Shown here in pieces: positions 22,653 through 43,785 of a DNA stretch of 58,013 nt. The position numbers and the translations under genes were made by a program. Under the pieces are notes generated by a model. That model saw nothing but the letters and a program-made list of their open reading frames with translations. It ran no database searches and was not told the DNA's origin. The stretch covers positions 1 through 58,013 of the forward strand of contig JAFTJI010000077.1 of assembly GCA_017456495.1 (NCBI GenBank). Reading direction: 5' to 3'. Position 1 is the first letter of the stretch. Each line of letters opens with the position of its first letter. Source of the DNA: Lentisphaeria bacterium (GTDB taxonomy: Bacteria; Verrucomicrobiota; Lentisphaeria; Victivallales; UBA1829).

Positions 22653-25600
22653 ATGATTCGCAAAACTTTGTCTGCCGTGGCTCTGGCAGCTGCGGTGAGT
22701 TCATTCGGTGATGCAATGTCCGATGCAACGATCCTGCGAATGCCGGCAATGCCGAAAGCCCCCGTGATCGACGGTAAAATCAGCACTGATGAATGGCGTT
22801 ACGCCTCCACTACATTTGGCGGTATTTCCACAAAAACCGGACTCATGACCCGCCGTCAGAACGATTTCCGTTTCGGTTATGATGCAAAGAATCTTTATGT
22901 TTCCATCACAAGTGAAACTCCTCTTGCTCCCCAGCCGATGACTAGCGACGATCGCGTGGAGTTCCGTTTCCTTCCCCCCGGAAAAACAACTCCTGTCATT
23001 ATTGAATTTGACTATACCGGAAAAGGAAAAATTCCCGCCGGAGTGATCGTGAAAAACTCCATCGGCGTTTCTGAAATGAATTCCGAACAGGGCGAATGCT
23101 GGACAACAGAAGTTGCTATTCCTCTTTCCGTCCTCGGGGTGGAAACGATTGAAAACGGCAAGGAATGGAAATTCCAGATGATGCGCCACTGGTCAAGCCA
23201 GAAAGAAACCGGCTACTTCCACCGTCCGAAAAATGATAAAGACATGGCAACATTTATTCCCGATAAGGATGCTATGGCGGTCAGCTTCGATGGTTTCGGG
23301 CATCACATGTATCCGGCAACCGGAAACTATACCTGGACTTACCGCGTTGAAAACCCGCATAACTATAAGGCTTATGTTCACTCCAACAGTTTCCGTTCCG
23401 GTTTGGACGGCGCACCGACACTTGACATCAACAACCCCGATCTTTTCGGAAAAGAAAAGAAAGCCCGTATCGGTTACAGCGTATTGGCAAAACCCGGCAT
23501 CTCCAGTTACTTCCAGCTATATATGATGGCACAGTTCCCCGGAAAGCCCCGCTGTCTTTACTCCCAGATCGTTTCTGTCAACAGAGATAAAGTATATTAT
23601 CAGCGAGTGATGTTCTGGGACACCTCTATTTCTCAGAGAGCTGCTGTTTATAAAGATTCTGTCGGTTATCCCTATCTGAGCTGCGGTTACTATCCCTCTT
23701 TCGGTGAAAAACTCCGTGTTGCAGCTACGTTCAACAGAAAACTCCCCATCGGTTATGCTGAAATCAATGTGCGCGACTCCAAAGGAAAAGTTCTTCATAC
23801 ATTCAAAAAATCTGCATTCGGAAACCCTCTGCAGAGTTTTGAAGATCAGACTGTCCTGAAAAATCTTCCTCTCGGTGATTATACTGTCACGATGGATACC
23901 ATCGCTCTTGACGGAAGAAAATTCTCTCACAAGAGAACTTTTTCCGTCCGTAAATTTGAATGGCAGGGCTTGAATATCGGGAAGGAACGTGTGATCATTC
24001 CTCCGTTCAAACCGTTGAAGCATAACGCTTCTAAGAAAGAGGTCCATGCGCTCATGACCGGTTATAAAATCGGCGGCGGCGTTTGGGATGCAATTTATGC
24101 AGAAGGAGAGAATATTCTTGCCGCACCCATTCAGCTTTTCCTCGATGGTAAGCCGGTTGCAGCAGGAAATATCAAGCTGATCTCCGTAGAAAAAGACCGT
24201 GTTGTTTATGAAACGACTTCTCAGGCAGGAAAAGTCAAGTTCGTTTTGAATCAGGATTATGATTATGACGGATTCTGCAAACTGACCGTGAAAGTCATCC
24301 CCCAGGGTACTGTGAAAGTCAAATCTTTTGATCTCCGTATTCCTGTCAAAAACAAATATGTCAAATATTATACCGCACTGCATTCCAACCGCAAGCGCGC
24401 ACTTGGAAAACCTGACTGGTCCATTCCGGCAGGGCAGGGCGAGCTGAACATGGATTCCGCTCTTCAGCGCAAAGGAAGAATCCAGAATTATGTCTGGCTT
24501 GGTGAAGAATATAAAGGGATCAGCTGGATCATTGATTCCCAGAAAGGCTTCTCTCTTGATAAAAAGAGTTTTCCTTACAAGTTGATCCGCAAGGGTGATA
24601 CCGTCACCTTCATTCAGCAGATGGTGAACGTTCCGACAGAATGGAACAAACCCTGGGAATTTGTCATGGGCTTCTCTCCCACACCTGTCAAACCTCAGGC
24701 AAAACAGTTCCGCAGCATCTCCCAGCCGATGTATGACTATCCTACCGCAAAGGGTGCTGTTGCTGCCGGTATCATGAATGTGACCCAGTGGCCCCTCGGC
24801 TATTACTATCCCATCAACGCATTCCCTAACGGCGATGATTCCTACTTCCGCATTATGCTCGACAGCCGCGGAAACAAAGGCATAACCGAAGCGCAACGGA
24901 AAAAGAATGCGGATAATTATATTGCACGCCACAAAAACTGGGTTCTGAAGAATGCTCCTCTTGCAAGTCTCAGCAATATGAGACGTCAGTTGATGGATCG
25001 CCGTTCTTATGGAGAAGATTACATCCTGATGTATCACAATCCGGCGTTCTATTCCTGCCGCTGGGCTGAAGCTGAAATGTACAAGGCGGAATGGCTCCCC
25101 TGGGATTATCCTGTTGATGATGCTCATAATGAATATATCGCATGTCAGACACCCCAGTACATTGACAAGATGCTGTGGGAAATGCGTACTCAGGCACGAT
25201 ATGGTTTCAGCGGTATGAACTTCGACTGCTTCCCTCTCGGCGGAGGGTTCAACACTGTCTCCATGAACGCATTCCGTGAACGCCCCGGAGCAGCTCCGAT
25301 CATCAGCAATGTGAATATGCTTCAGATCGCTTCCCCCGGGATCCAAGCCGGAACCAACCTGTTCGGCTGGCGCGAACTTATGAAACGGACCGCCCATATG
25401 CTTTATACCGAAAAACGGCTTACGTTCGGTGTGCCCTGGGTGGAAGTCCACTCAACCAATGCGATCGTTCCGTCTGTCGCAGCATTCTGCTCCACGGTCA
25501 TTACAACAGAATGTGCTTCCAAAGGAAAAGATTACTATGACCGTTTCCCCGACAGCTATACTCTCTGTGATCTTGTCGGCACCCAGTCCGGTGTGGTTCC

Positions 25601-26051
25601 CCGTCCTATCTTCTCCACTGTATCCAGTCTGATTCCTAAAGCGGAACAGGTCAGGACAATGATCGCATTCTCCTTTGCTTATGGTTTGATGAACCATTGC
25701 GACCAGGGGATCGAGCGCGGTCATAAGGAATACCGGATCGCCCGTGACGAAGTCTTTACTTTCGGCTACGGCAGACCGGAAAACAAGACCATTGCTTTCT
25801 ATGACAAAGAACCGCAGCCCATTAAGTGTAATGCGAAAAACATCCGCACTACTCAGGTGATCCGTCCCGATGGAAAGGCTCTTCTCATGGTGGGTAACCT
25901 CGGCGGAAAAGTCAAAGTGAAGTTCGATCTTTCCGGATTGAACTACAAAAATTACAAGATTACAGATGTTTACACAGGAAAAGTGCTTAAGAGTGCAGAA
26001 ATTGTGGTTGATAACCACGGCTATGCTCTGCTCAAAATTGAGAAACTTTGA
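22653..26051 (+). CDS. Secreted ~1130-aa multidomain protein, paralog 1 (CBM9-like N-terminus; uncharacterised putative glycan-active core)
   Basis: I set the start at the ATG after GAAAGGAG. It has the signal peptide MIRKTLSAVALAAAVSSFG and is homologous over its full length to the ORFs at 26092, 29546, 33230 and 40387. Confidence 0.85.
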   Translation: MIRKTLSAVALAAAVSSFGDAMSDATILRMPAMPKAPVIDGKISTDEWRYASTTFGGISTKTGLMTRRQNDFRFGYDAKNLYVSITSETPLAPQPMTSDDRVEFRFLPPGKTTPVIIEFDYTGKGKIPAGVIVKNSIGVSEMNSEQGECWTTEVAIPLSVLGVETIENGKEWKFQMMRHWSSQKETGYFHRPKNDKDMATFIPDKDAMAVSFDGFGHHMYPATGNYTWTYRVENPHNYKAYVHSNSFRSGLDGAPTLDINNPDLFGKEKKARIGYSVLAKPGISSYFQLYMMAQFPGKPRCLYSQIVSVNRDKVYYQRVMFWDTSISQRAAVYKDSVGYPYLSCGYYPSFGEKLRVAATFNRKLPIGYAEINVRDSKGKVLHTFKKSAFGNPLQSFEDQTVLKNLPLGDYTVTMDTIALDGRKFSHKRTFSVRKFEWQGLNIGKERVIIPPFKPLKHNASKKEVHALMTGYKIGGGVWDAIYAEGENILAAPIQLFLDGKPVAAGNIKLISVEKDRVVYETTSQAGKVKFVLNQDYDYDGFCKLTVKVIPQGTVKVKSFDLRIPVKNKYVKYYTALHSNRKRALGKPDWSIPAGQGELNMDSALQRKGRIQNYVWLGEEYKGISWIIDSQKGFSLDKKSFPYKLIRKGDTVTFIQQMVNVPTEWNKPWEFVMGFSPTPVKPQAKQFRSISQPMYDYPTAKGAVAAGIMNVTQWPLGYYYPINAFPNGDDSYFRIMLDSRGNKGITEAQRKKNADNYIARHKNWVLKNAPLASLSNMRRQLMDRRSYGEDYILMYHNPAFYSCRWAEAEMYKAEWLPWDYPVDDAHNEYIACQTPQYIDKMLWEMRTQARYGFSGMNFDCFPLGGGFNTVSMNAFRERPGAAPIISNVNMLQIASPGIQAGTNLFGWRELMKRTAHMLYTEKRLTFGVPWVEVHSTNAIVPSVAAFCSTVITTECASKGKDYYDRFPDSYTLCDLVGTQSGVVPRPIFSTVSSLIPKAEQVRTMIAFSFAYGLMNHCDQGIERGHKEYRIARDEVFTFGYGRPENKTIAFYDKEPQPIKCNAKNIRTTQVIRPDGKALLMVGNLGGKVKVKFDLSGLNYKNYKITDVYTGKVLKSAEIVVDNHGYALLKIEKL

Positions 26052-26091
26052 TAAAGGTGAAACAAAAAATATAGAATAAAGGAACTGGCTT

Positions 26092-29000
26092 ATGCGACGA
26101 TATTTTTTCACTGCAGCTGCAGGTTTGTTTTTTGCAGCTTCTGCAATGGGTGACAAACTGTCAGATGAAACAATTCTGCGTTTTGCTCCCATGCCGAAAG
26201 CTCCGGTGATCGACGGAAAAATCACTCCGGAAGAGTGGAAATTTGCCTCCACAACTTTTGGCGGGATCTCTCCGAAAACCCGTTTGATGACATTCCGTCA
26301 GAATGATTTCAGAATCGGTTACGATGCAAAAAATATTTATGTTGCAATCACCAGTGAAACGCCTCCGCCGCCCCAGCCGATGAACAGCGGAGATCTGGTG
26401 GAATTTCAGTTCATTCCTCCCGGAAAAACAACTCCGCTGATCGTAAAATTTGACAGTACCGGTAAGGGAAAAATCCCTGCCGGGGTCAAAATCGCAAACG
26501 GATTCAGTTTTTCTCCGATGAACTCTGAAAAGACCATTTGCTGGAACGCAGAAGCCGTGATCCCTCTTTCTGTCCTTGGTGTAAAATCAATCGAAGACGG
26601 AAAAAAATGGAAATTCCAGATGATCCGTCACTGGGCAAGTCAGAGTGAAACCGGATATTTTCATCTCCCTGCAAAAGAGGGGGATATGGCAACATTCATT
26701 CCTGATAAAAAAGCCCTGACAGTCAGCTTTGACGGTTTCGGTCACAATCTCTACGCCGCAACAGGAAACTATACCTGGATCTATCGCATTGAAACCACTT
26801 TGAAGCACAGAGTTTATGTTCACTCCAAGAGTTTCCGCGCCGGTCTGGATGGTGCCGCAACTCTGGATATCAACAATCCCGATCTGATTGGAAAAAGCAG
26901 AAAGGTCCGCATCGGTTCCAGTACCAGAACCATTCCCGGAAAAACCAGTTATTTTCAGCTTTACATGATGGCGCAGTTCCCCGGAAAACCCCGATGTCTT
27001 TACTCTCAGATTTTCGATGATGCCAAACCAAGACAGGTTTTGTATCAGCGCACGATGTTCTGGGATACCAACATCTCCCGCAAGGCTGCCTCTTTCAAGG
27101 ATGATTCTGGCTATCCTTTCCTGAACGCCGCATTCTATCCCTCTTATGGAAATAAGTTCCGTTTTGCGGCAACTTTCAATAAAAAATTGCCCATCGGTTA
27201 TGCGGAAGTCAAGGTGAAAGACACCAACGGGAAAGTTTATTATACCTTTAAAAAATCAAGTTCCGGAAAAGCTCTGAAAGATTTTGAAGAGCAGACGGCT
27301 CTCCCGAATCTGCCTCTTGGTGATTATGTCGTCACCCTGGATACCATTGCGCTTGACGGAAGAAAATTCTTCCATAAGAGAACTTTTTCCATCCGCAAAT
27401 TTGAATGGCAGGGGTTGGATCTGGGGAAAGAACGGGTCATTGTTCCTCCGTTCAAACCGCTGAAACACAATGCTGATGCGAAAGAAGTCCATGCACTTCT
27501 GACCGGCTATAAAATCGGAGATGGTATCTGGAGCAAAATTTATGCGGAAGGGGAAAATATCCTTGCGGCTCCCATTCAGCTGTTCCTTGACGGAAAAGCG
27601 GTGAAAACCGGAAAAATCAAACTCGTCTCTGCCGAAAAGGATCGTATCGTTTATGAACTGACTTCTCAGGTCGGAAGAGTCAAGTTCCAGATCAATCAGG
27701 ATTATGATTACGATGGATTCTGCAAACTGACCGTAAAAGTTATTCCTCAGGGAAAAGTGAAAGTCAAATCTTTTGAACTCCGGATCCCCTTGAAGAATGA
27801 TCTTGTGAAATATTACACCTCTCTGCGCAGCAGTCGGAAGCGGTCTCTCGGAAGACCTGATTGGACCATCCCGGCAGGGCAGGGGGAACTGAAACTGGAT
27901 GCCATTCTCAGGAAAAAGGGCAGAATTGAGCACTATTTCTGGCTCGGAGAAGAGTACAAAGGTCTCAGCTGGATCATTGACACCCAGCGCGGATTCACTG
28001 TTGATAAGAAAACCTACCCCTGCAAACTCATCCGGAAAGGGAATACCATCACCTATGTTCAGCAGATGGTGAACGTTCCGACCGAATGGAGCAAACCGTG
28101 GGAATTTGAAATGGGCTTCTCTCCCACACCTGTGAAACGACAGAACAAACAGTTCCGTACATTGAGCCAGTGGATGTATCACTATCCGGTGGCAAAAGGT
28201 TCCACCAACGGCGGAAGTATGCTCGTTTCACAATGGCCGCTGCTCTATTTCTATAACATCAATGAATTGCCGCAGGGCGATGATTCCTACTACCGCAAGC
28301 TCATGGAAACTCGCGGCAAAACTGTCAGCAATGAAGAACGGATCAAATTCGGCGAAGCATATATTGCCCGCCACAGCGACTGGATTCGGAAAAACAGACC
28401 GCTCGTTGAGATGTCTGTTTTCAGACGGCATGTGCTTGACCGCCGTAATTTTGGTCTTGACTATTATCTGCAGTATCACAATCCGGCGTTCTACTCCTAT
28501 CGCTGGCCCGAAGCTGAAATGTATAAGGCTGAATGGCTCCCCTGGGATTATCCTGTGGACGATGCTCATAACGAATACATCGCGGCGCAGTCCTCCACCT
28601 ACATCGACAAAATGCTTTGGGAGATCCTGACGCAGATCCGCTGGGGTATGGACGGCATGAATTTTGATTGTTTCGCTCTTGGAGGCGGTCATAACTCTGT
28701 CTCTATGAAAGGGTTCCGTGATGCTCCGGGGCGTGTTCCCATGGTCACGAACAGCAATATGCTTCAGATCGCCTCACCGGGATATATCCCCGCAACCAAC
28801 CTGTTCGGCTGGCGTGAACTTCTGAAACGGACAGCTCATCTGCTTTATACCGAAAAACGGCTCGTCTTCGGTGTCCCCTGGGTGGAACTTCACTCAACAA
28901 ACATTCAGGCCGTTCCGGTCACTGCGTTCTGCTCTACTGTGATTACAACTGAATGTGCCAGCGGCGGAAATGATTACTTCGACCGATTCCCCCGTGCTGC

Positions 29001-29493
29001 TGTCCTGGCTGATATCGCAGGACTTCAGTCCGGAGTGGTTCCCAGAAATATTATTTCAACCAAGTCCACAAAACTCTCACCGGAAGAACAGATGCGAACG
29101 ATGATGGGGCTCTGTTTTGCCTATGGTTTGATGAACCATTTTGACCAGGGAATCATGAAGGGGTACACCGATTACGGAATTGCCCGTGATGCCATTTTCT
29201 CTTTCGGCTACGGAAGACCGGAAAACCAGACCATTGCGTTTTATGACAAGGAAACTCAGCCTGTTACTTGCAATGCAAAAAATATCCGCACAACGCAGGT
29301 TATCCGTCCTGACGGAAAGGCTCTCATTCTTGTCGGAAATATTGGTGAGAACGTCAAGGCAAAGTTTGATCTTTCCGGTTTGAATTACGGAAAATATAAA
29401 ATCACAGATGTATTTACCGGGAAAGTTCTGCCGACTGCTGAAATTGAAGTTCAGCGGCACGGTTATGCTCTGTTGAAGATCGAAAAACTTTGA
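26092..29493 (+). CDS. Secreted ~1130-aa multidomain protein, paralog 2
   Basis: Signal peptide MRRYFFTAAAGLFFAASAMG. It has the same invariant blocks as paralog 1 and lies 40 bp downstream of it. Confidence 0.85.
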   Translation: MRRYFFTAAAGLFFAASAMGDKLSDETILRFAPMPKAPVIDGKITPEEWKFASTTFGGISPKTRLMTFRQNDFRIGYDAKNIYVAITSETPPPPQPMNSGDLVEFQFIPPGKTTPLIVKFDSTGKGKIPAGVKIANGFSFSPMNSEKTICWNAEAVIPLSVLGVKSIEDGKKWKFQMIRHWASQSETGYFHLPAKEGDMATFIPDKKALTVSFDGFGHNLYAATGNYTWIYRIETTLKHRVYVHSKSFRAGLDGAATLDINNPDLIGKSRKVRIGSSTRTIPGKTSYFQLYMMAQFPGKPRCLYSQIFDDAKPRQVLYQRTMFWDTNISRKAASFKDDSGYPFLNAAFYPSYGNKFRFAATFNKKLPIGYAEVKVKDTNGKVYYTFKKSSSGKALKDFEEQTALPNLPLGDYVVTLDTIALDGRKFFHKRTFSIRKFEWQGLDLGKERVIVPPFKPLKHNADAKEVHALLTGYKIGDGIWSKIYAEGENILAAPIQLFLDGKAVKTGKIKLVSAEKDRIVYELTSQVGRVKFQINQDYDYDGFCKLTVKVIPQGKVKVKSFELRIPLKNDLVKYYTSLRSSRKRSLGRPDWTIPAGQGELKLDAILRKKGRIEHYFWLGEEYKGLSWIIDTQRGFTVDKKTYPCKLIRKGNTITYVQQMVNVPTEWSKPWEFEMGFSPTPVKRQNKQFRTLSQWMYHYPVAKGSTNGGSMLVSQWPLLYFYNINELPQGDDSYYRKLMETRGKTVSNEERIKFGEAYIARHSDWIRKNRPLVEMSVFRRHVLDRRNFGLDYYLQYHNPAFYSYRWPEAEMYKAEWLPWDYPVDDAHNEYIAAQSSTYIDKMLWEILTQIRWGMDGMNFDCFALGGGHNSVSMKGFRDAPGRVPMVTNSNMLQIASPGYIPATNLFGWRELLKRTAHLLYTEKRLVFGVPWVELHSTNIQAVPVTAFCSTVITTECASGGNDYFDRFPRAAVLADIAGLQSGVVPRNIISTKSTKLSPEEQMRTMMGLCFAYGLMNHFDQGIMKGYTDYGIARDAIFSFGYGRPENQTIAFYDKETQPVTCNAKNIRTTQVIRPDGKALILVGNIGENVKAKFDLSGLNYGKYKITDVFTGKVLPTAEIEVQRHGYALLKIEKL

Positions 29494-29545: not shown

Positions 29546-32500
29546 ATGAGAACTTCGTTGTTAACAGCTGCTTTTGCTGTTACCGCAGCTGCTTCATCGT
29601 TTGGAAATACGATTTCCGACGAGACATTGCTGCGTTTTGCACCAATGCCGAAAGCACCCGTGATCGATGGGCGGATCGACTACAATGAATGGAAGTATGC
29701 TTCCACCACTTTCGGAGGTATCTCTCCGAAAACAAAGTTGATGACCCGCCGTCAAAATGATTTCCGGATCGGTTACGATGCAAAATACATTTATTTTGCA
29801 ATTTCCAGCGAAATCCCTCTTCCGCCCCAGTCTTTAAGCCCGGAAGATCAAGTCGAGTTCCAACTGCTCCCGCCGGGAAAAAAGGAACCTGTCGTAATCA
29901 AATTTGATGTCACTGGAAAAGGAAAAATCCCTGCCGGAGTCAAAGTCCGCAACACGATCGGATATGTTATTATGAACGCAGAGCAGGGGAAATGCTGGAC
30001 AACAGAAATTGCAGTTCCTTATTCCGCTTTGGGCGTTTCAGGAATCAAGTCCGGCGAAAAATGGGGACTTCAGATGATCCGTCACTGGTCCAGCCAGAAG
30101 GAAACCGGATTCTTCCATCTTCCGAAAAAAGCTGGAGAAATGGCAACCTTTATTCCTGATTTCAATGCGCCGACCATCAGTTTCGACGGTTTCGGTCTGC
30201 TGATGTACACCGCAACCGGAAACTACAACTGGACCTATCGTATTGAGAATACCCTGAAACAAGATTTCGGTGTCCATTCTGAAAGTTACCGCTCCGGTGT
30301 CAATGCAGCTGCAACTCTTGACATCAACAATCCCGATCTCTTCGGCAAAGAAGAGAAAGTCCGGATCGGTTACAGTCAGGTGGTCAAACCCGGAAAAACC
30401 GGTTTGTTCCAGCTGCACATGATGGCTCAGTTCCCCGGAAAGCCCCGTCTGCTTTACTCCTTCCTGAAAGGATATAACAATGTTGTTTACTACAAACGCA
30501 CCATGTTCTGGGATGTGATCCTTTCCCAGAGAGCTGCTGTTTATAAAGATGAGCGCGGTCTTCCTTACCTCAATGCCGGTTACTATCCCTCTTTCGGCGA
30601 AAAACTCCGTGTCGCTGCCAGTTTCAACAAGAAACTTCCCATCGTGAATGTTTCTATTACTGTCAGAAACTCCAAAGGAAAAGTCCTTCATACCTTCGCA
30701 AGATCCGGATTCGGACGTCCTCTGGAAGATTTTGAAGATCAGACGATCCTGAAGAATCTCCCTGTTGATGATTACACCGTGACCATGGAATCCATGGACA
30801 TGAACGGAAAAACTTATACTCATGTGAGAACATTCTCCATTGCCAAGTTCCCGTGGCAGGGCTTGAACCTTGGAAAAGAACGGATCATTATTCCGCCGTT
30901 CAAACCCTTGAAAGTCGATAAAAAGAAACAGGAAGTCCATGCTCTGCTGACCGGTTATCAGATCGGCGGCGGTGTCTGGAACGCCATTTATGCTGAAAAT
31001 GAAAATATTCTTGCGGCACCCATCCAGTTCGTGCTGAACGGAAAACCGGTTCCTGCAGGAAAAATCAAATTGCTCTCCGCAGAAAAAGACCGTGTTGTTT
31101 ATGAAGCGACTACGGGCAGCGGAACAGTCAAATTCGTTCTCAATCAGGAATATGATTATGACGGATTCTGCAAACTGACGACCAAAGTCATTCCTCAGGG
31201 GATGGTCAAGGTTACCTCTTTCCAATTGCTGATCCCCATGAAGGCGGAATATGCAAAGTATTACGCTGCTCTTGGTTTCGGAAACAGAACCCGCGGACAG
31301 GGGAAACCTGATACGACCATTCCTGCAGCGCAGGGGGAAATCAAGCTGAATGTCAATCAGCGCAAAGGTTTTATCCTGAATTATTTCTGGTTCGGAACCG
31401 CTTATAAAGGTTTCAGCTGGATCATTGACACTCAGAAAGGGTTCGCGCTTGACAAGAAAAAATACCCGCACCGCATGGAGCGGAAAGGCAATACAGTTGT
31501 CTTTACTCAGGACATCGTGAATATGCCGACCGTCTGGGATAAGCCGTGGGAATTTACTTTTGGTTTCTCTCCCACACCGGTGAAGCCCATCAACAAGAAC
31601 TATCGCAGTCTTTCAACCTGGATGTATGACTATAAGCCTGCCAAAGGTTCTGACAAAGCCAATATGTCGATCCAGCAGCTTCCTCTTGGCGAATATTATG
31701 ATATTCAGGCAACACCTCCGGGTGGAGAAAGCTACTATCTGGATATTGTGAAGAACCGCGGCAGATTTATCCCCCCCGCAGAACGCAAGAAAATGGCAGA
31801 TGAATATATTGCCAAACATAAAGATTGGATCCTGAAAAATGCCCCGATGGCAGATTTCAGCCTCATCCGGAAAATGTTTGAAGATCAGCGTGTCTGGGGC
31901 GACCATTACTTCCTCGTTTACAATGACCCCGCTCATTACTCCTACCGTTGGAAAGAAGCGGAAATGTACAAGGCAGAATGGCTCCCGTGGGATTACCCCG
32001 TGGATGATGCTCTGAACGAATATGTTGCATGCAAAACACCGCAGTATATCGACAAAATGCTTTACGATATGCGCAGATATGCCCGCTGGGGAATCGAAGG
32101 CATGAACTTCGACTGTTTCCCGCTTGGCGGCGGACGGAACACTGTCTCCTGCGGCGCATTCCGCGAAAAGCCCGGTCCGGTGCCGCTGATCTACAACCAT
32201 AACATGCTTCAGATCGCTCCCTATGGAATCGTTCCCTGCCGCAATCTTTTCGGCTGGCGCGAACTTACCAAGAGAACGGCTCATATGCTTTATACCGAAG
32301 GTCGCCTTGTTCATGGTGTGCCCTGGGTAGAACTCCACTCCACAGATTCTGCAGTGCCGGCAGTGACCGCTTTCTGTTCCACTGTGATCACAACCGAATG
32401 TGCTTCTCTCGGAAGTGATTTCTTTGACCGGTTCCCGGAAAGCTATCTGCTGAGTGACCTTGCCGGACTTCAGGCTGGTGTCATGCCCCGTCCCATCGTT

Positions 32501-32961: not shown

Positions 32962-32993
32962 CCGGAGAACTTTTCAGTTTCTCCGGTTTTTTT
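32962..32993 (+). terminator. Rho-independent terminator after paralog 3
   Basis: CCGGAGAA / TTCTCCGG stem, 9-nt loop, followed by a run of 7 T. Confidence 0.7.
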
Positions 32994-33182: not shown

Positions 33183-33229
33183 TCAGTAAAATCTATACAG
33201 AACATTTTTATCATCCGGAGGCATCTTTC

Positions 33230-36200: not shown

Positions 36201-36622
36201 AATTGACCCGCGCAGAACAGGTCAAGTCTCTCATCAGCTGGATCTTCGCCTATGGTATGATGAACTATTGCGATCAGGGCGTTTTGAAAGGACAGAAAGA
36301 TTTCCGGGTTCAACGGGATGCAATTTTCGGTTTCGGTTATGGCAGACCTCAGAACAAAACCATTGCTTTCTATGATAAAGAACCTCAGCCGATTACCTGC
36401 AATGCTCCCATGGTCCGGACAACTCAGGTGATCCGCCCCGATGGAAAAGCTCTGCTCATGATCGGTAATACCGGAGATAAAGTCAAGGTGAAATTTGATC
36501 TCTCCGGGTTGAAGTATGGAAAATATAAAGTGACGGATCTGTTTACCGGAAAGGTTCTGACAAGTACAGAGCTGGAACTGCCCCGTCACGGTTATGCACT
36601 TTGGAAAATAGAAAAACTTTGA
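33230..36622 (+). CDS. Secreted ~1130-aa multidomain protein, paralog 4
   Basis: RBS GGAGG and signal peptide MQKRFLIAALSISTAVSALG. It is homologous end to end with the other four. Confidence 0.85.
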   Translation: MQKRFLIAALSISTAVSALGYSLSDETLLRFSAMPEVPVIDGKIDYNEWKYASTTFGGISPKTKLMTFRQNDFRIGYDDKFVYFSITSEIPLPPQTLDKDDCVELQLLPPGKTKPVVIKYDYSGKGQVPAGVKIRSSIAYTTMNAEQGKCWITEAAIPYSVLGVSKFNDGEKWGLQMIRHWSSKKETGYFHLPKKNGEMATFIPDSKAPVCSFDGFGLLMYQNAGNYMWTYRAENTQKHKFGVISKSYRSGVNAAATLDITNPDLIGKEVKALIAGNKMLNPGETALFQLHMVAQFAGKPRLLYSHLKGYNNIDYYKRVMFWDTSISQRAATYKDEIGLPYLNAGYYPSYGEKLRVAASFNKKLPIANVSITVRNSKGKVLHRFSRSGFGRPVEDFEDEVILKNLPVDSYTVTMESMDMNGKTYNHVRTFAIAKFPWQGLNLGKERIIIPPFKPLKLNKQTREIHALLTGYKIGGGIWNAVYAEGENILAAPIQFVLNGKPLPAGNIKLLSAEKDRIVYEATVTEGKLKLILNQEYDYDGFCKLTTKIIPLAPIKVKSFELHIPMKDKYAKYYATIRGNRPRAQGKPDTTIPAGQGVLDIKGALQENGRVMNYFWFGTAYKGFSWIIDTQKGFSIEKKKYPHRMVRNGNAVIFVQDIVNRQTVWDAPWEFTFGFSPTPVKPINKNYRTLSTWMYDYPLPTGADKCNMQVEQLPLGDYYDVQAVPNGDDYYYRQIVASRGKVISDAERNRMADAYIAKHKDWILRNAPLADFSLIRKLFTTKRAWGDHYMLMYNDPAYYSYRWKEAEMYKAEWLPFDYPVDDALNEYVANKTPEYIDKMLWEMRRYVRWGLDGMNFDCFPLGGGRNTVSMGAFREKPGRVPLMYNHNMLQFVPEGIIYARNFFGWRELTKRTAHMLYTEGKLIHGVPWVELHATDAAVPAVAAFCSTVITMECGSAGKDYFDRFPESYVLSDLAGTQAGVAPRPIVSTHSTKLTRAEQVKSLISWIFAYGMMNYCDQGVLKGQKDFRVQRDAIFGFGYGRPQNKTIAFYDKEPQPITCNAPMVRTTQVIRPDGKALLMIGNTGDKVKVKFDLSGLKYGKYKVTDLFTGKVLTSTELELPRHGYALWKIEKL

Positions 36623-36649: not shown

Positions 36650-37426
36650 ATGAAAAAAAGTATCATTCTCTCTTCAATGTTGACTGTTGCATGTTTCGCA
36701 GGTGCCGCAGAATATGTTTTTGATTCTCAGGCAGATTGCAGATTGGAAGGCGGAAAAAGACTGGAATTCAAGGATGGATGCCATGTCCTGAAAGGTGCCT
36801 GCCATTTCATGACAGATAAAGCTTTTACCAATAATCCGGCAAAAAAGTATAAACTGTTTGCAGATATCAAGCGCGGAACCAACCAGAAAACCAGTGGCTT
36901 GACTTTTGCAGTCATGTATCTTGATGAAAAAGGAAGAACGATCCAGACCCGTGAATATCTGACGGTTCCCAACTCCTTTACCGAACTTGCAAAGCCGATG
37001 AAGCCCACTGATAAGGTTATCACACTCAAGAAACCTGCAAATTTCAAAAAAGGTTACAACTGGCCCGTCGTTGTCGCTTTTGAAGCAAAAGCAGATGAAT
37101 CTGATATTCCCAACCCCAAAGTTACCACCAAAACCAGCAAGGTGGTGATTGGTGCAGATACCATTACAGTGACTCTTGACAAGCCGACTTTTGCAGCTTA
37201 TCCTGCCGGAACAAAAGTCAGACTCCACTATGCTCTGGCTTTCTACCGTCCGCTGAATATCGACAAGTTCTACAACCATCCTACAGACAAATGGGTTACC
37301 ATCGGCGGCGATGTCCCCATGCCCAAAGGCGTGAAAAAATTCAAACCCGTTATCGTCTACTATGACTGGGCTAAAGGTACCACAAAAACCGTTCTGGTCC
37401 GCAACTTCAAGCTCATTGAGGAATAA
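36650..37426 (+). CDS. Secreted 258-aa protein of unknown function (beta-rich, possibly a binding module)
   Basis: RBS AAAGGAAAA and signal peptide MKKSIILSSMLTVACFAGA. I recognise no family motif. Confidence 0.7.
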   Translation: MKKSIILSSMLTVACFAGAAEYVFDSQADCRLEGGKRLEFKDGCHVLKGACHFMTDKAFTNNPAKKYKLFADIKRGTNQKTSGLTFAVMYLDEKGRTIQTREYLTVPNSFTELAKPMKPTDKVITLKKPANFKKGYNWPVVVAFEAKADESDIPNPKVTTKTSKVVIGADTITVTLDKPTFAAYPAGTKVRLHYALAFYRPLNIDKFYNHPTDKWVTIGGDVPMPKGVKKFKPVIVYYDWAKGTTKTVLVRNFKLIEE

Positions 37427-37429: not shown

Positions 37430-38566
37430 ATGAAAAAGATTCAGACAGCCGTTTATTATTTCCCCAACTACCATGTGGATCCCCGGAATGAAGCTGTTCA
37501 TGGACAGGGATGGACCGAATGGGAACTCATGAAAGTCGCGCGTCCCCGTTTTGAAGGACATGATCAGCCGAAGGTCCCTCTTTGGGGATATGAAGACGAG
37601 GCAGATCCCGCAGTAATGGCAAAAAAAATCGACGTCGCTGTAGAACATGGTGTCGATGCGTTTATCTTTGACTGGTACTGGTACGAAGGACCCTATCTGG
37701 AACGCTGTCTGAAAGAAGGTTTCCTCGGCGCGCCCAATAATGACAAAATGAAATTTGCTCTTATGTGGGCGAACCATGACTGGAAGAATTTCCATCCGGG
37801 CGGACGGGATACGAAAAACTATCCCATCAACTTCCCGTGGAGTACCCGCCGGGAAACTGTCGGATACGTCTGGGATTATATCATTGAAAACTTCATGACC
37901 AAGCCAAATTACTGGCGCGTGGATGGTCTGCCGTACTTCTCCATTTATGCTGTGAACCGTTTTATTGGTCAGATGGGCGGCGTGGAAGCAACCGCAGAAG
38001 TTCTCGCTGAGTTCCGTGAAAAAGCCGTCAAAGCCGGTTTGCCCGGAATCCATATCGGCGGTATCTGGTTTGACGTTCTCGACAGTCATCCGGCTTACTC
38101 CGAATGTCCTCAGGCTGACTGGGCAAACAAACTCGGTTTCTCCAGCTACACCAGTTACAACAACTGCTGCACGACTGATGAATGGTTCCGGAACTTCCCG
38201 CACATTGATTACGATAAATCTGCGGAAGAGTACTATCAGATCGCCCGCAAGGCTATGACAACTCTTCCCGCACCGTATCACCCCGTTGTAACTGCCGGAT
38301 GGGATTCCACGCCACGCTGTACGCAGTCTGAAGTTTATGATGCCAAGCCGTCCTATCCCTATCTTGGTGTGATGCAGCCCACTCCTGAAAAATTCGGAAA
38401 AGCCGTTGCAGAAACAGTAAAGATTTTGAAAGAATATGCTGCAGATAATCCGATTTTCTTCATCAACGCATGGAACGAATGGACAGAAGGAAGCTATCTG
38501 GAGCCTGACACCCGGTTCGGTATGGCTGTATTGGAAAACCTGAAAAAAGAACTTGCTTTACAATAA
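37430..38566 (+). CDS. WbsX / GH99-like domain protein (PF14307-type), no signal peptide
   Basis: [15 protein letters not shown]...[32 protein letters not shown] and [15 protein letters not shown] resemble the WbsX/GH99-like TIM-barrel family. Confidence 0.65.
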
Positions 38567-38588
38567 TTTACAGAAAAGAGGTCTTTTT

Positions 38589-39386
38589 ATGAAAAGAATG
38601 AACCCCGCCTGCAGGCGGGTAAAGCACCAGTGCTTTACCTTGATAGAGCTGTTAGTGGTAATTGCAATCATCGCGATTCTTGCAGGAATGCTTCTGCCTG
38701 CTTTGAACAGTGCCAGAGAAAAAGGAAGAAGTTCTTCGTGTGTGAATAATTTGAAAGGCATTGGAACTGCTCAGGCAATGTATTCTGATGATCACGACGG
38801 TTGGATTCTTCCCTGTAGAATGCCAAATTATGAAGAGTCTCAGGATCAGTGGTTTATGGTTCTTTCAGGCGTTGACAGTTCCGGTGTGAAAAGCAAAAAA
38901 TATGCCGGATGGGGAGTCGCTTTTTATGGGCTAAATAATCCAAAAGGATCTTTTTATTGTCCTTCTGCCAATCCGAAAGTGAAATATGGCTGCACAACAT
39001 ATGGCATCAACCGTTTTTTGCTGGGAGATGACGGAGTTGGTTATTACGCCAGAAAAACTTCATGTGTAACCAGTGCAGCTTCAGCTGTTTTTTCTGCAGA
39101 TTTATCTCATACAGGAACTTATCGTATGCATGATTCCGGATCTTTGGCATTCCGTCATGGCGGCGATCCCGGAGATGGTGTCCGTGGGCTCGGTTCGGGA
39201 TACAATCTTAAATCCGGTGGAGCTGGTTATACTCCCGCCGGAAAGACGAACGTCCTTTATTTTGACGGTCATGTTTCAAGCTTGAGCTTGCAGCAGGTGA
39301 TGATCCTTGATGGCGGGATTAATAACCATAAATTCATAAAGTCTACAGGTTTTAATCCTGATCAGAAAAGTGCCCCGTTGATGTAA
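38589..39386 (+). CDS. Prepilin-type N-terminal domain protein of the DUF1559 / H-X9-DG class (pseudopilin-like)
   Basis: [32 protein letters not shown] at the N-terminus and [10 protein letters not shown] near the C-terminus. I set the start at the ATG at 38589, after AAAAGAGG. Confidence 0.85.
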
Positions 39387-39405: not shown

Positions 39406-39443
39406 GCATAACAAAGCTGCTTGAAAAATTATCTTTGTTATGC
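39406..39443 (+). other. Perfect 11-bp stem hairpin between the two pseudopilin-like genes
   Basis: GCATAACAAAG, 16 nt, CTTTGTTATGC. No clear T-tract follows, so its function is unclear. Confidence 0.3.
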
Positions 39444-39493
39444 TGGATTGTATAGTGAACACCCCCAAAAAAATTTTATATAGGAGTTTGAAA

Positions 39494-40306
39494 ATGGAAA
39501 GAGCAGGCAGGACTTTTTGCAGCAGGTTTACTTTGATCGAATTGTTAGTTGTTATCGCAATCATTGCGATTCTTGCCGGCATGCTGTTGCCCGCATTGAA
39601 CAGTGCCAGAGAAAAAGGGCGCAGTGCCAGCTGTACCAATAATTTAAACACGATCGGCAAAGCTCAGGCTATGTATTCTGCGGATCATGATGACTGGATC
39701 CTGCCCAGCCGTATGCCGAATTATGATGGCAATTACGACCAGTGGCATATGGTGCTTTCCGGAAAAGATACCAGTGGAAAAAAGAATCCGAAATATGCCG
39801 GTTGGGGGGCAAGTTTCCACGGAGATTTCAGATACGCAGGAAAAGGAAAAACCTGTACTTTTACCTGCCCGACGGCGAATCCGAATGTTGCCTGGACAAC
39901 AACTCATTATGCCCACAACCGTTTTTTACTGGGAGATGTCAAAGAGGATGGGGTCCAAAAAGTTTTTGCCAGAAAAACTTCTTGCGTAACCTCCGCATCT
40001 TCAGTAATTTTTGCCAGCGACCTGGTCAATAAAGGAGGTTCTTATTTGCATGATATGGCATCATCTTCATACCGTCATGGCGGGAGTGGAGATCCCGGTG
40101 ATGGAACACGGGGAGTCGGAACAGGTTGGCATTAAAAAAACAATAAATTAGGTTATATTCCGTCAGGCAGGACAAATATCGTTTACTTTGATGGTCATGT
40201 TCATTCCATGTCCGTTGCAGAAGCTGTTGCCTTTGAAGGTAATGTTGATGGCAAACTTCTGAAAACCGGCTGGAATGATGTCCGCGGTCCGGAGTGGGCT
40301 TATTAA
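39494..40306 (+). pseudogene. Second DUF1559 / H-X9-DG pseudopilin-like gene, interrupted by an in-frame TAA at 40133-40135
   Basis: The ORF 39494-40135 ends ...GVGTGWH-stop. The same frame then continues KNNKLGYIPSGRTNIVYFDGHVHSM... to a TAA at 40304-40306, colinear with the intact neighbour. Confidence 0.75.
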
Positions 40307-40326
40307 AATAGTGTTTTCTCTGAAAA

Positions 40327-40354
40327 AACTCCTGAAAGGTTCTGTTCAGGAGTT
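40327..40354 (+). terminator. Weak terminator/attenuator-like hairpin upstream of paralog 5
   Basis: AACTCCTGAA / TTCAGGAGTT form a 10-bp stem with an 8-nt loop, followed by a short T run that partly lies within the stem extension. Confidence 0.35.
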
Positions 40355-40386
40355 TTGGGCACTTATTCTAATCTTCAGGAGTCAAA

Positions 40387-43300
40387 ATGAAGAAAATATT
40401 TTCTGCTGTTGTCCTTTTTGCGGCAGTGAGTATATTCGGGAATCCAATGTCCGATAAAACCATTTTACGCTTTGCTGCCATGCCTGCGGCTCCGGTGATA
40501 GATGGAAAAATCGGTGTCGATGAATGGAAATATGCCTCAACGACCTTTGGCGGGATCTCTCCGGAAACTGGATTGATGACACGCCGCCAGAATGATTTCC
40601 GTCTGGGGTATGATGCAAAAAACATTTACGTTGCTATTACCAGCGAAACACCTCTTGCTCCCCAGCCTCTTACAGACGCGGATCGCGTGGAGTTCCGTTT
40701 CATCGCCCCCGGAAAACAGACTCCTGTTGTGATTTCTTTTGACAGCACAGGGAAAGGAAATATCCCTGCCGGAGTGATCGTGAAAAACGGTATTGATGTT
40801 GCCTTGATGAACTCCGAACAGGGCAAATGCTGGACCGCTGAAGTTGCGATTCCCCTTTCCGTCTTCGGTCTCACTTCTATTCAAGATGGAGAGGAATGGA
40901 AATTCCAGATGATGCGTCATTGGTCAAGCCGGAAGGAAACAGGATATTTCCACAATCCGAAAAGGAATAATGAAATGGCGACCTTTATTCCGGATCGGAA
41001 CGCCATGATTGTCAGCTTTGACGGTTTCGGACATCATATGTATCCCGCAACCGGAAACTACAATTGGACCTACCGGATTGAGAATCCGCACAACTTTAAA
41101 GCCTATGTTCACTCCAACAGTTTCCGATCCGGGTTGAATGGCGCTCCAACCCTTGACATCAATAATCCTGATCTTCTTGGCAGTGAAACAAGAGTCCGGA
41201 TCGGTTACAGTGCGTTGCTCCATCCCGGAAAAACGGAGTATTTCCGTCTTTACATGATGGCTCAGTTCCCCGGAAAAGCACGCTGTCTTTACTCTCAAAT
41301 CGTTGATAATACGAAAGAACGCCGTCCGCTTTATCAGCGTGTGATGTTCTGGGATACTGTTCTGTCCCAGCGTGCAGCCGTTTATCAGGATGAAGTCGGT
41401 TATCCCTACTTGAGCAGCGGTTTTTATCCCTCTTACGGAAACAAGCTCCGGGTCGCTGCAACATTCAATCCGAAATTGCCTGTCGGTTATGCGGAGATCA
41501 ATGTCCGGGATTCCAAAGGAAAGGTCATACATACATTCCGAAAGAGCAATTTCGGCAAGGCGTTAAAAGATTTTGAAGACCAGACTGTCCTTCCGGAACT
41601 TCCCCTGGGTGATTACACTGTGACAATGGATACCATCGCTCTGGATGGCAGAAAATTCAGTCATACAAGAACCTTTTCTGTCCGCAAGTTTGCATGGCAG
41701 GGATTGAATCTTGGAAAAGACCGGGTAATCATTCCGCCTTTCAAGCCTTTGAAGTACAGCTCTGTGTTCAGCAAAGAAGTTCATTCCCTGCAGACCGGCT
41801 ACAAACTCGGTGACGGGATCTGGCAGGAGATCTATGCGGAAAAAGAGAATATCCTTGCTGCGCCTGTTCAGCTTTTTCTTGACGGTAAACCCGTCAAAGC
41901 CGATTCCATCAAGCTGATTTCTGCCGCAAAAGATCAGATCGTCTTTGAAACCTCTTCCAAAATGGAGAAAGTAAAATTTGTTCTGCGTCAGGATTACGAT
42001 TATGACGGATTCTGCAAGGTGACTGTAACAATGATTCCGGATGGAACAGTCAAAGTCAAAAACTTTGAACTGCGCATCCCCCTGAAAAATAAAATTGTAA
42101 AATATTACTCGTCTTTGCACGGAAACCGCCGCCGTGGTCAGGGAAAAGTCGATTGGTCTGTCCCGAAAGGCGAGGGGGAACTCAACATGTCTGCTTTTGT
42201 TCACTCAAAAGGACGAATCCAGAATTACTTCTGGATGGGTGGGGAATATAAAGGGCTTGGCTGGATCATTGATACCCAGAAAGGGTTCTCTCTGAACCGG
42301 AATACTGTCCCTTACAGAATCGTTCGCAAGGGGGATACTCTCACCTACATAATGGATATCGTGAACATCCCGGCAGAATGGAAAAACTCCTGGAGTTTTG
42401 AAATCGGTTTCATCCCCACTCCTGTTAAACCCCAGAACAAACGTTATCGTGCAATCTCCCAGCCGATGTATGACTATCCTACTGCTGAAGGTTCTGTCGC
42501 AGCCGGTATGATGAATGTCTTCCAATGGCCCCTGGATTACAGCTATGACATCAACCAGTTCCCCAATGGAGATGATTCCTACTACCGTACGATCCTTGCC
42601 AGCCGCGGTAAAAAGGTTACTGAGCCCCAACGGAAAAAATATGCTGATGATTATATTGCACGGAATCAAGAGTGGATCTTGAAACATGCTCCGCTTACAG
42701 ACTTGAATGTGATCTGGAAAAAGTTCTATGACCGCCGCGTTTATGGCGAAGATTACTTTCTGATGTATCATAATCCGGCTTACTATTCCTGCCGCTGGAG
42801 AGAAGCTGAGATGTATAAAGCAGAATGGCTTCCGTGGGATTATCCTGTGGATGATGCCCATAATGAGTATATCGCATGCCAAACCCCGGAATACATTGAT
42901 AAAATGCTGTGGGAAATAAAAAAACAGATCGATTACGGTTTCGATGGCATGAACTTTGACTGTTTCCCCCTTGGCGGCGGGTTTAACACCGTTTCAATGA
43001 AAGCCTTCCGGGAACATCCGGGAAGTGCGCCGATCATCAGTAATGCCAACATGCTTCAGACGGCATCAGCAGGAATCAATCATGTAACCAATCTGTTCGG
43101 CTGGCGCGAATTGATGAAACGGACTGCTCATCTGCTTTATGTCAATAACCGTCTGGTCTTCGGCGTTCCCTGGGTCGAGGTTCACGATACCAATGTTCAG
43201 CCTGTCTGTATTGCCTCTTTCTGTTCCACTGTAATAACTACAGAATGCGGCAGCGGCGGAAAAAGTTACTTTGACCGTTTCCCGGAAGGCGCAGTTCTTG

Positions 43301-43785
43301 GGGATATCGCCGGGCTTCAGTCCGGTGTCGTTCCCCGGACGATCTTTTCCACTTCATCCGGTAAAATTTCCAAAGCGGAACAAATCAAGAGTTTGATTGC
43401 CTTCTCCTTTGCATATGGTCTGATGAATCATGTTGATCAGGGCGTGACAAGAGGTTACAAAGATTACCGGATTGCCAGAGATGAAGTTTTTTCATTCGGT
43501 TACGGCAGACCGGAAAACAGAACTATTGCATTTTATGACGCTGAAAAGCAGCCCATTACCTGTAATGTGAAATCCATCCGTACAACGCAGGTGATCCGCC
43601 CGGATGGAAAAGCTCTCCTGATGGTTGGTAATACCGGCGATAAAGTCAAGGTCAAGTTTGATTTCTCCGGGTTGAAGTATGGGAAATACAAGATCACAGA
43701 TGTTTTTACCGGAAAAGTTCTGCCGTCTGCGGAAATCGAAGTCCAGCGTCATGGCTATGCTTTACTGAAAATCGAAAAACTTTAA
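40387..43785 (+). CDS. Secreted ~1130-aa multidomain protein, paralog 5
   Basis: RBS CAGGAG and signal peptide MKKIFSAVVLFAAVSIFG. Paralog 1 is its closest relative. Confidence 0.85.
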   Translation: MKKIFSAVVLFAAVSIFGNPMSDKTILRFAAMPAAPVIDGKIGVDEWKYASTTFGGISPETGLMTRRQNDFRLGYDAKNIYVAITSETPLAPQPLTDADRVEFRFIAPGKQTPVVISFDSTGKGNIPAGVIVKNGIDVALMNSEQGKCWTAEVAIPLSVFGLTSIQDGEEWKFQMMRHWSSRKETGYFHNPKRNNEMATFIPDRNAMIVSFDGFGHHMYPATGNYNWTYRIENPHNFKAYVHSNSFRSGLNGAPTLDINNPDLLGSETRVRIGYSALLHPGKTEYFRLYMMAQFPGKARCLYSQIVDNTKERRPLYQRVMFWDTVLSQRAAVYQDEVGYPYLSSGFYPSYGNKLRVAATFNPKLPVGYAEINVRDSKGKVIHTFRKSNFGKALKDFEDQTVLPELPLGDYTVTMDTIALDGRKFSHTRTFSVRKFAWQGLNLGKDRVIIPPFKPLKYSSVFSKEVHSLQTGYKLGDGIWQEIYAEKENILAAPVQLFLDGKPVKADSIKLISAAKDQIVFETSSKMEKVKFVLRQDYDYDGFCKVTVTMIPDGTVKVKNFELRIPLKNKIVKYYSSLHGNRRRGQGKVDWSVPKGEGELNMSAFVHSKGRIQNYFWMGGEYKGLGWIIDTQKGFSLNRNTVPYRIVRKGDTLTYIMDIVNIPAEWKNSWSFEIGFIPTPVKPQNKRYRAISQPMYDYPTAEGSVAAGMMNVFQWPLDYSYDINQFPNGDDSYYRTILASRGKKVTEPQRKKYADDYIARNQEWILKHAPLTDLNVIWKKFYDRRVYGEDYFLMYHNPAYYSCRWREAEMYKAEWLPWDYPVDDAHNEYIACQTPEYIDKMLWEIKKQIDYGFDGMNFDCFPLGGGFNTVSMKAFREHPGSAPIISNANMLQTASAGINHVTNLFGWRELMKRTAHLLYVNNRLVFGVPWVEVHDTNVQPVCIASFCSTVITTECGSGGKSYFDRFPEGAVLGDIAGLQSGVVPRTIFSTSSGKISKAEQIKSLIAFSFAYGLMNHVDQGVTRGYKDYRIARDEVFSFGYGRPENRTIAFYDAEKQPITCNVKSIRTTQVIRPDGKALLMVGNTGDKVKVKFDFSGLKYGKYKITDVFTGKVLPSAEIEVQRHGYALLKIEKL

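Follow-up and report, generated by a model that had tools for sequence, protein, structure and literature searches.

FpGalNase from Flavonifractor plautii, a glycoside hydrolase (GH) of family GH36, consists of an N-terminal domain, a GH36 domain and a C-terminal domain, and its residues K461/D463 and D532 are essential (PMC11762096). Three features are common to GH123 enzymes and the DUF4091 groups: an N-terminal beta-sandwich, the DUF4091 domain (PF13320) and a barrel whose catalytic DE motif is 94% conserved (PMC11087588). Five tandem genes from a gut Lentisphaeria bacterium can be compared with both. They are found on contig JAFTJI010000077.1 of assembly GCA_017456495.1, and the whole stretch of 58,013 nucleotides that was analysed is called the window below. 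The best explanation of these genes, with a probability of about 60%, is that they encode anciently duplicated, exported, retaining glycosidases of the DUF6067 family with a GH36-like module, in which Asp858 and Glu953 (numbering of copy 1) would have the catalytic roles, and that they feed a locus of cytoplasmic glycosidases. That the five proteins act on glycosides at all is highly probable.

The open reading frames (ORFs) of all five copies were found on the + strand at the positions given in the initial annotation (Table 1). They are intact and encode proteins of 1130-1133 amino acids, with four accessory genes separating copy 5 from copies 1-4. Homology from end to end, as first described, is evident from an alignment with 63-74% identity to copy 1 and a mean column identity of 78%, which is far beyond chance. 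The blocks reported as invariant, AEMYKAEWLP(W/F)DYPVDDA, GMNFDCF(P/A)LGGG, GVPWVE(V/L)H, FCSTVIT(T/M)EC and the tail RTTQVIRPDGK...HGYAL(L/W)KIEKL, are present in this alignment as quoted. The mechanical ORF start of copy 1 is 22635, and a start at 22653 is favoured because a ribosome-binding site, GAAAGGAG, is located directly 5' of that ATG.

Pairwise comparisons of the whole genes show that synonymous divergence (dS) is saturated at 1.3-1.9, with a nonsynonymous divergence (dN) of 0.16-0.32 and dN/dS of 0.10-0.21. A recount of one short block (25071-25142 in copy 1, 42805-42876 in copy 5) gave exactly the 9 differences in 24 codons noted before, all synonymous. Mean identity among the copies is fairly even when the domains are compared (64-68%). 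The insertion between barrel strands 1 and 2 is the least conserved part (50%), and the barrel core at residues 790-860 (77%) and the C-terminal domain (79%) are the best conserved. The division into subclades 1/2/5 and 3/4, made by eye, is upheld by dN and by a neighbour-joining tree; the motif GKPRCLYSQI that had been quoted for the first subclade reads GKARCLYSQI in copy 5.

The same tree included homologs from other metagenome-assembled genomes (MAGs), whose loci are labelled L001-L033. Copies 1, 2, 3 and 5 each group beside their own ortholog and copy 4 is a basal branch of the copy 3 group. Copy 1 pairs with L004_3789 at 95% identity, and the orthologs of copy 5 in L001, L007 and L008 are single-copy genes there. 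Further tandem arrays were found in L005 (three copies) and L016 (two copies). Because individual copies have orthologs in other MAGs, the duplications are older than the splits between those species and the copies have not been homogenised. The five copies are old paralogs held by purifying selection, and saturated dS, low dN/dS and separate orthologs for most copies all agree with the first description of them as old, selected and free of recent homogenisation.

Profile matches assign the five copies to the database family DUF6067/PF19543. All of them match PF19543, named 'GH123_N', at 33.5-37.8 bits (Pfam gathering cutoff 22), and 40 of 41 relatives also pass. The match is restricted to the large beta-sandwich in front of the barrel (D4, model positions ~290-540 of 969), and the same restriction is seen in relatives that NCBI names DUF6067. 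Two proteins with that name, P0120 (MCM8803736.1) and MDD2480384.1 (a member of cluster P0212), score 702 and 520 bits against the family profile and cover nearly the whole of it. This is in line with the initial annotation, which expected at most DUF-type or distant GH123-like matches. The only other Pfam domain above its cutoff is Melibiase_C (cutoff 22.9), which was matched by full-length copy 4 (26.4 bits) and by the isolated tail of copy 1 (23.4 bits).

Searches for more distant relationships gave little. Taken alone, the barrel of copy 1 matches nothing in Pfam at E<=10, and copies 1 and 3 have no match in NCBIfam. PDB searches with profiles of 5 and 41 sequences rendered chance-level fragments of CopC or choloylglycine hydrolase, on the immunoglobulin (Ig)-like domain D3 only. 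A comparison by hhalign of the family profile with the GH31 enzyme YicI of Escherichia coli gave a probability of 0.2 and was of no help in mapping catalytic residues. The copies are not members of GH36 by sequence, since no Pfam Melibiase/GH36 model was matched and the PDB gave no sequence match even with the 41-sequence profile. The first domain, D1, had been likened to CBM9/DOMON modules. This label is unconfirmed, as isolated D1 of all five copies is without a Pfam match at E<=10, and CBM9_1 (PF06452) was matched below threshold in a single distant member (P0062, 19.3 bits, cutoff 23.4). The P-x-I-D-G...E-W motif of this domain is conserved in >90% of the family.

Copy 1 was modelled with AlphaFold2 from a 41-sequence alignment. 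The full-length model has a mean predicted local distance difference test score (pLDDT) of 91.3 and a predicted template modelling score (pTM) of 0.90; for residues 436-1132 the values are 93.7 and 0.94. The secondary structure of both models gives the module order D4 sandwich, complete (beta/alpha)8 barrel and C-terminal sandwich. A structure lacking any barrel or pocket, which would have pointed to binding proteins, was thus not obtained. The description of the tail as the small beta-sandwich typical of TIM-barrel glycosidases also holds, because it is modelled directly after the barrel and matches Melibiase_C in copy 1.

On inspection by eye, the N-termini of all five copies look like signal peptides of the signal peptidase I type without a lipobox Cys: K/R residues are followed by a hydrophobic stretch of ~12 residues and then by small ones at -3/-1 (SSFG|D is one example). 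In the model of copy 1 a helix of low confidence is found at residues 2-17. No such N-terminus was seen in the neighbouring GH127, WbsX-like, GH78-like, GH2, GH78, GHL6 and GH4 proteins. Both parts of the earlier claim, Sec-type signals in the copies and none in the surrounding glycosidases, therefore stand. A Sec signal in a diderm shows crossing of the inner membrane only, and an extracellular depolymerising or capturing role is a reasonable inference from these N-termini.

Structural comparison with Foldseek, using residues 436-1132 of copy 1 and considering the best 50 matches, gives a clear closest relative. The first 16 chains are all GH36 structures, with 9awt at the top (E 7e-16, template modelling (TM) score 0.41-0.43) followed by 4fnt, 2yfn, 2xn0, 6phv, 3mi6 and 6jhp. 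The GH36 matches extend from E 7e-16 to ~1e-12 at probability 1.0. Structures from GH97, GH27 and GH31 come after them (E 2e-11 to 1e-7), and the 3,6-anhydro-D-galactosidase 5opq is found at rank 45. When the whole protein was used as query the output was dominated by LacZ alignments at TM-scores of 0.13-0.15, which represents generic multi-domain similarity, and a likeness to LacZ was rejected. The initial annotation stated that the core matches no known family. This is correct for the sequence, but the fold is closest to GH36 and other enzymes like those of clan GH-D, so the copies are orphans by sequence and not by structure.

Conservation was examined in an alignment of 109 family members reaching down to ~20% identity to copy 1, with a mean column identity of 13%. 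Six barrel residues are invariant in all 109: D858, R907, R912, H933, E953 and G980. Y794, E813, W814, D838 and T935 are conserved in >90% of the members, and only N, D or E occurs at position 796. R907 and R912 are situated in one helix and D838 in another, and these residues are therefore probably structural. With the two arginines set aside, D858, H933 and E953 are the invariant ionisable residues of the barrel. The triad is retained in every copy, as D859/H934/E954 in copy 2, D856/H931/E951 in copies 3 and 4 and D858/H933/E953 in copy 5. In the model of copy 1, D858 ends the strand 854-860, H933 ends the strand 927-934 and E953 is found two residues past the strand 948-951. These are strands 4, 5 and 6 when alternating beta/alpha units are counted.

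In clan GH-D-type families (GH27/31/36) the Asp of strand 4 is the nucleophile and a carboxylate after strand 6 is the acid/base. By analogy with these families, and from the positions in the model, Asp858 is the likely nucleophile and Glu953 the likely acid/base. The family consensus G-I-Y-(F/Y/W)-D-N presumably resembles the nucleophile motifs of GH27/31/36, and is taken as a lead rather than as a test. Among the catalytic candidates put forward earlier, the Glu of the TTEC block (E953) proved to be invariant throughout the family. The Glu of WVE(V/L)H (Glu931) and the acids of DYPVDD are not conserved in the 109 members and were ruled out. The GMNFDCF block had been quoted as well, but without singling out its invariant Asp, D858.

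Position 796, in the Y-x-N/D-P motif after barrel strand 2, differs between the subclades. It is encoded by Asn codons in copies 1, 2 and 5 (25038-25040, 28480-28482 and 42772-42774) and by Asp codons in copies 3 and 4 (31925-31927 and 35609-35611). This is a subclade-specific switch at a position that probably contacts the substrate.

A double-displacement (retaining) mechanism would be the most likely one. Asp858 in GMNFDCF at strand 4 would attack as nucleophile and Glu953 in ITTEC after strand 6 would act as general acid/base. The sugar site would be lined by His933 at the end of strand 5, by Glu813-Trp814 and by Tyr794-x-Asn/Asp796. Binding or positioning of a polymeric substrate is the probable task of the three N-terminal beta-sandwiches. 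After Sec export the proteins would trim or depolymerise a glycan outside the cytoplasm, and the cell would take up the products for final breakdown by the GH127, GH78, GH2, GHL6 and GH4 enzymes without signal peptides, under AraC-type control. The maintenance of ancient duplicates by purifying selection suggests a division of labour among the copies, with different linkages or contexts within a single heterogeneous glycan as targets. Paralogy, selection, fold, the pattern of conservation and gene context are shown directly by the analysis; hydrolase activity, stereochemistry, the roles of the residues, the final location and the substrate are inferred.

Several observations weigh against this explanation. 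The TM-scores to GH36 are only ~0.4, with a root-mean-square deviation of ~11 A, and the barrel has no sequence link to any characterised family in Pfam at E<=10, in the PDB profile search or by hhalign against YicI. The numbering of the strands was read from the secondary-structure string alone. The K-x-D motif of GH36 is not kept (N/Y-F-D here), and the putative acid/base is Glu where GH36 has Asp. The neighbouring genes differ between subfamilies, and the context therefore fixes no substrate. A literature search on DUF6067, PF19543, IPR045711 and GH123_N yielded database construction only and nothing functional, and no family member with known activity was found in the literature searched.

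A GH36-like scaffold could also serve non-hydrolytic chemistry, as in a transglycosylase, a glycoside phosphorylase or an eliminase resembling alpha-glucan lyase. The fold and the conserved Asp and Glu suit any enzyme that forms a glycosyl-enzyme intermediate. GH31 includes lyases and the retaining alpha-glycosidase families include transglycosylases. However, nothing specific supports such chemistry here, the rest of the locus consists of hydrolases, and export makes a phosphorylase less likely. This alternative is considered improbable.

The Pfam name raises the question whether the copies are divergent GH123-type beta-N-acetylgalactosaminidases, with substrate-assisted catalysis by an adjacent Asp-Glu pair. 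PF19543 is above its cutoff in the five copies (33-38 bits) and in nearly all relatives, and in L031 a second cassette pairs a pilin-like gene with a protein matching PF22680 (Glyco_hydro_123_N_2). However, the PF19543 match covers the pre-barrel sandwich only, also in relatives named DUF6067. At E<=0.01, none of 41 members matches PF13320 (DUF4091/GH123_cat), a domain conserved in GH123 and related beta-N-acetylgalactosaminidases (PMC11087588). In those enzymes the DE motif shows 94% conservation (PMC11087588), but among the 109 members aligned here D858 is followed by Asn 64 times, by Cys 20 times, by Asp 19 times and by Glu just twice; all five copies have Cys. The best 50 Foldseek matches include no GH123 structure, whether the query is the whole protein or the segment 436-1132. 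The Pfam label thus reflects homology of the sandwich domain only and should not serve as a prediction of beta-N-acetylgalactosaminidase activity, and a GH123-type enzyme is very unlikely. Also very unlikely is a degenerate glycosidase fold without catalysis, in which the copies would be adhesins or would bind glycans at the surface or in the periplasm: beta-sandwich domains make up ~60% of each protein and the genes adjoin pilin-like genes, but Asp, His and Glu at the C-terminal ends of the barrel strands are invariant in 109/109 despite the low mean identity, as in a maintained active site, and the barrel core is among the best conserved parts of the copies.

Table 1. Coordinates of the five copies, of the domains and proposed active-site codons, and of associated genes and elements in the window.
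Feature	Position	Strand	Details
Copy 1	22653..26051	+	1132 aa; copy used for modelling; subclade 1/2/5
Copy 2	26092..29493	+	1133 aa; 69% identity to copy 1; subclade 1/2/5; ortholog L004_7220
Copy 3	29546..32938	+	1130 aa; 66% identity to copy 1; subclade 3/4; orthologs L006_9426, L005_9422
Copy 4	33230..36622	+	1130 aa; 63% identity to copy 1; subclade 3/4
Copy 5	40387..43785	+	1132 aa; 74% identity to copy 1; subclade 1/2/5; orthologs L001, L007, L008
Signal peptide / N-terminal helix	22653-22718	+	copy 1, residues 1-22
Beta-sandwich D1	22731-23267	+	copy 1, residues 27-205
Beta-sandwich D2	23277-23642	+	copy 1, residues 209-330
Ig-like sandwich D3	23673-23948	+	copy 1, residues 341-432; weak CopC-like matches
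Large pre-barrel beta-sandwich D4	24018-24692	+	copy 1, residues 456-680; Pfam GH123_N match
(beta/alpha)8 barrel	24720-25802	+	copy 1, residues ~690-1050; ~85-residue helical insertion between strands 1 and 2
C-terminal beta-sandwich	25842-26048	+	copy 1, residues 1064-1132; Melibiase_C match
Asp858 codon (GMNFDCF)	25224..25226	+	copy 1; 109/109; C-terminal end of strand beta4; candidate nucleophile
Asp858-equivalent codons	28666-28668, 32111-32113, 35795-35797, 42958-42960	+	copies 2-5
His933 codon	25449-25451	+	copy 1; 109/109; end of beta5
Glu953 codon (ITTEC)	25509..25511	+	copy 1; 109/109; two residues past beta6; candidate general acid/base
Glu953-equivalent codons	28951-28953, 32396-32398, 36080-36082, 43243-43245	+	copies 2-5
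AraC-family regulator	21709..22476	+	directly upstream of copy 1; Pfam HTH_18 and AraC_binding
Promoter-like module	22541..22628	+	upstream of copy 1
Promoter-like module, repeat	33120-33204	+	upstream of copy 4
Terminator-like hairpin and T run	32962..32993	+	after copy 3; CCGGAGAAC...GTTTCTCCGG then TTTTTTT; found by eye
Terminator-like hairpin and T run	40329-40356	+	after pp2; found by eye
258-aa protein	36650..37426	+	signal-peptide-like N-terminus; no Pfam match; conserved neighbour of the big genes in close relatives
WbsX-like protein (PF14307)	37430..38566	+	Pfam 186 bits; no signal peptide; syntenic in L005
pp1, pilin-like	38553..39386	+	prepilin N-methylation motif and DUF1559; Pfam N_methyl, SBP_bac_10/DUF1559
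pp2, pilin-like DUF1559	39440..40312	+	in-frame TAA at 40133-40135

The array is preceded by the AraC regulator and a divergent GH127 gene, with housekeeping genes further upstream. Between copies 4 and 5 are the genes for the secreted 258-aa protein, the WbsX-like protein and the two pilin-like proteins with N_methyl and DUF1559 domains. Downstream of the array follow, in order, a GH78-like gene, a second AraC gene, and genes for GH2, a metallophosphatase, GH78, GHL6, a sulfatase and GH4. Parts of this arrangement recur in other genomes. The copy 5 ortholog in L001, a single-copy gene, is flanked by an AraC gene too and is followed by a DUF1559 gene (13417-14175), 49% identical to pp2, and then by a gene for a 257-aa protein (14242-15015), 55% identical to the 258-aa protein. 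In L005 the three-copy array is followed by a 259-aa ORF (12842-13621), which holds the same place, and by a WbsX-like gene.

More distant loci have a similar composition with other small proteins. L031 and L033, at 27-28% identity, contain in this order a regulator, a DUF1559 pilin-like gene (L031 7530-8222; L033 7475-8167), a LamG protein of ~260 aa and the big protein, and the LamG domain is fused in some relatives. The 258-aa protein has no detectable similarity to LamG or to other small partners of the distant subfamilies. Pairwise comparison of the small partners of different subfamilies shows no similarity, so no single small partner is conserved family-wide. The remaining neighbours at other loci vary and include GH39-like, FAD_oxidored, beta-helix/PA14 and ADP-ribosylglycohydrolase proteins. 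A motif scan found a pilin-like gene on the same strand, mostly <= ~3 kb from the big gene, in roughly 15 of the loci with usable flanks. This adjacency spans relatives from 71% down to 27% identity, including many of L005-L024, and is recorded here as a lead.

The reading frame of pp2 continues beyond its in-frame TAA to 40312 and encodes a conserved C-terminal '...NIVYFDGHVHS...', which is present in the intact paralog pp1. The stop is either a nonsense mutation, making pp2 a pseudogene, or an assembly error. P0058 (1389 aa, L033 9001-13170) has a C-terminal extension that resembles a separate 285-aa gene located after the homolog in L031 (12361-13218), with CGKLNVRLGAATYWN shared as judged by eye. 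P0058 would then appear to be a gene fusion joining that small protein to the enzyme.

Some features were noted in the wider window. An FGE-sulfatase gene for a protein like the formylglycine-generating enzyme (44-1198, +) and a sulfatase gene (54393-56171, +) are located at opposite ends, which hints that the target glycans may be sulfated. At 17614-19329 (-) a single ORF of 571 aa contains an RpiB/LacAB ribose-5-phosphate isomerase and a full serine hydroxymethyltransferase. Unless an artefact of the start codon is involved, this fusion is unusual. The metallophosphatase ORF (48044-50011) shares ~145 bp with the 3' end of the GH78 gene upstream of it (49867-52092), both on the - strand. The true start of the metallophosphatase is probably further downstream because the listed N-terminus looks non-native.

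The promoter-like modules upstream of copies 1 and 4 share three elements at near-equal spacing: GGC(A/G)GATAATTCTATTTTT, the -10-like GTTTATG.A.TATAAT and ATACAGAACA. To judge from these repeated elements they are probably two promoters regulated together through a common operator, to which one of the AraC regulators perhaps binds. The two hairpins suggest three transcription units: copies 1-3; copy 4 with the 258-aa, WbsX-like, pp1 and pp2 genes; and copy 5 with the GH78-like gene. A scan of the window for sigma-70 promoters gave 37 sites compared with 26 +/- 4.5 in shuffled sequences. A terminator scan gave 15 compared with 21.5 +/- 4.9, and missed both hairpins.

The family is large. When 1.84 billion representative proteins, clustered at 50% identity, were searched with a profile, 10,436 clusters matched at E<=1e-3, of which 2,267 reached E<=1e-30, with >150 near-full-length matches above 500 bits. 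The relatives are called 'hypothetical protein', 'glycoside hydrolase domain-containing protein' or 'DUF6067 family protein', and those with names come from Lentisphaeria, Victivallales, Victivallaceae and Omnitrophota. A genome survey seeded by the five-copy alignment, which reaches only relatives keeping EMYKAEW or GMNFDCF, found 26 loci, all in MAGs. They originate from Lentisphaeria/Victivallales of sheep and goat rumen and colon, digesters and other sources, and from one ruminal member of Kiritimatiellia.

Lentisphaerota belong to the Planctomycetota-Verrucomicrobiota-Chlamydiota (PVC) superphylum. Together with other PVC bacteria they often degrade glycans in the rumen, the hindgut and digesters. 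They are, however, almost uncultured, and many of their enzymes are unannotated. Five maintained copies in one locus are a heavy investment for the organism. If an activity were assigned, a new CAZy family would probably result, and thousands of genes now listed as 'hypothetical' or 'DUF6067' could be annotated. The misleading 'GH123_N' label, which invites annotation as beta-N-acetylgalactosaminidase, would be corrected as well. The pairing of DUF1559 with DUF6067 offers a testable handle on DUF1559, which is among the largest unexplained gene families of PVC bacteria.

A more far-reaching idea, tentative and rather unlikely, is that the copies are founding members of a new CAZy GH family with novel specificity and also the enzymatic arm of a PVC-specific glycan-acquisition cassette. 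Such a cassette may consist of a regulator, a pilin-anchored DUF1559 protein resembling solute-binding proteins (SBP-like), a small secreted protein with a LamG-like or unknown beta-sandwich and the large DUF6067 enzyme. The cassette is based on the recurrent same-strand adjacency together with the LamG fusions in some relatives. If true, the cassette would be the counterpart in Lentisphaerota and their relatives of the SusC/D-based polysaccharide utilisation loci of Bacteroidota.

Compared with known systems, the copies are most like the GH36 alpha-galactosidases and alpha-galactosaminidase of clan GH-D: FpGalNase (9awt/8x1b), Geobacillus AgaA/AgaB (4fnt/4fnq), AgaSK (2yfn), the Lactobacillus enzymes (2xn0/3mi6, with LaMel36A among the matches) and SpAga (6phv). 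They share the succession of N-terminal beta-sandwich, (beta/alpha)8 barrel and C-terminal beta-sandwich module, the Melibiase_C match of the last domain, and the Asp at the end of strand 4 together with a carboxylate after strand 6, both of them invariant in the family. K461/D463 and D532, the essential residues of FpGalNase (PMC11762096), would correspond to these strand 4 and strand 6 positions. On the other hand, sequence identity to GH36 is just 8-10%, and the copies and their relatives carry (Y/N)-(F/Y/W)-D-(N/C/D) in place of K-x-D and a putative acid/base Glu in place of Asp. They also hold an invariant His on strand 5, the ~85-residue helical insertion between strands 1 and 2, and ~430 extra N-terminal residues made up of the signal peptide and three beta-sandwiches.

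GH123 enzymes (NgaP, CpNga123, BvGH123) and the DUF4091 groups (PMC11087588) resemble the copies in the succession of N-terminal beta-sandwich and (beta/alpha)8 barrel, and the sandwiches are linked through Pfam, but the copies lack both DUF4091/PF13320 and the DE motif. For DUF6067/PF19543 proteins the Pfam model covers the pre-barrel sandwich only and says nothing on function. The likeness to GH97, GH27 and GH31 (5e1q, 5xfm, 4nx0, glucosidase II, MYORG, MalA) and to 5opq is at the superfamily level, in the layout of barrel and beta-sandwich; the structural matches to GH97, GH27 and GH31 are weaker than those to GH36, and hhalign against YicI finds nothing. The five copies are a candidate new GH family inside a known fold and mechanism class, and not a categorically new system.

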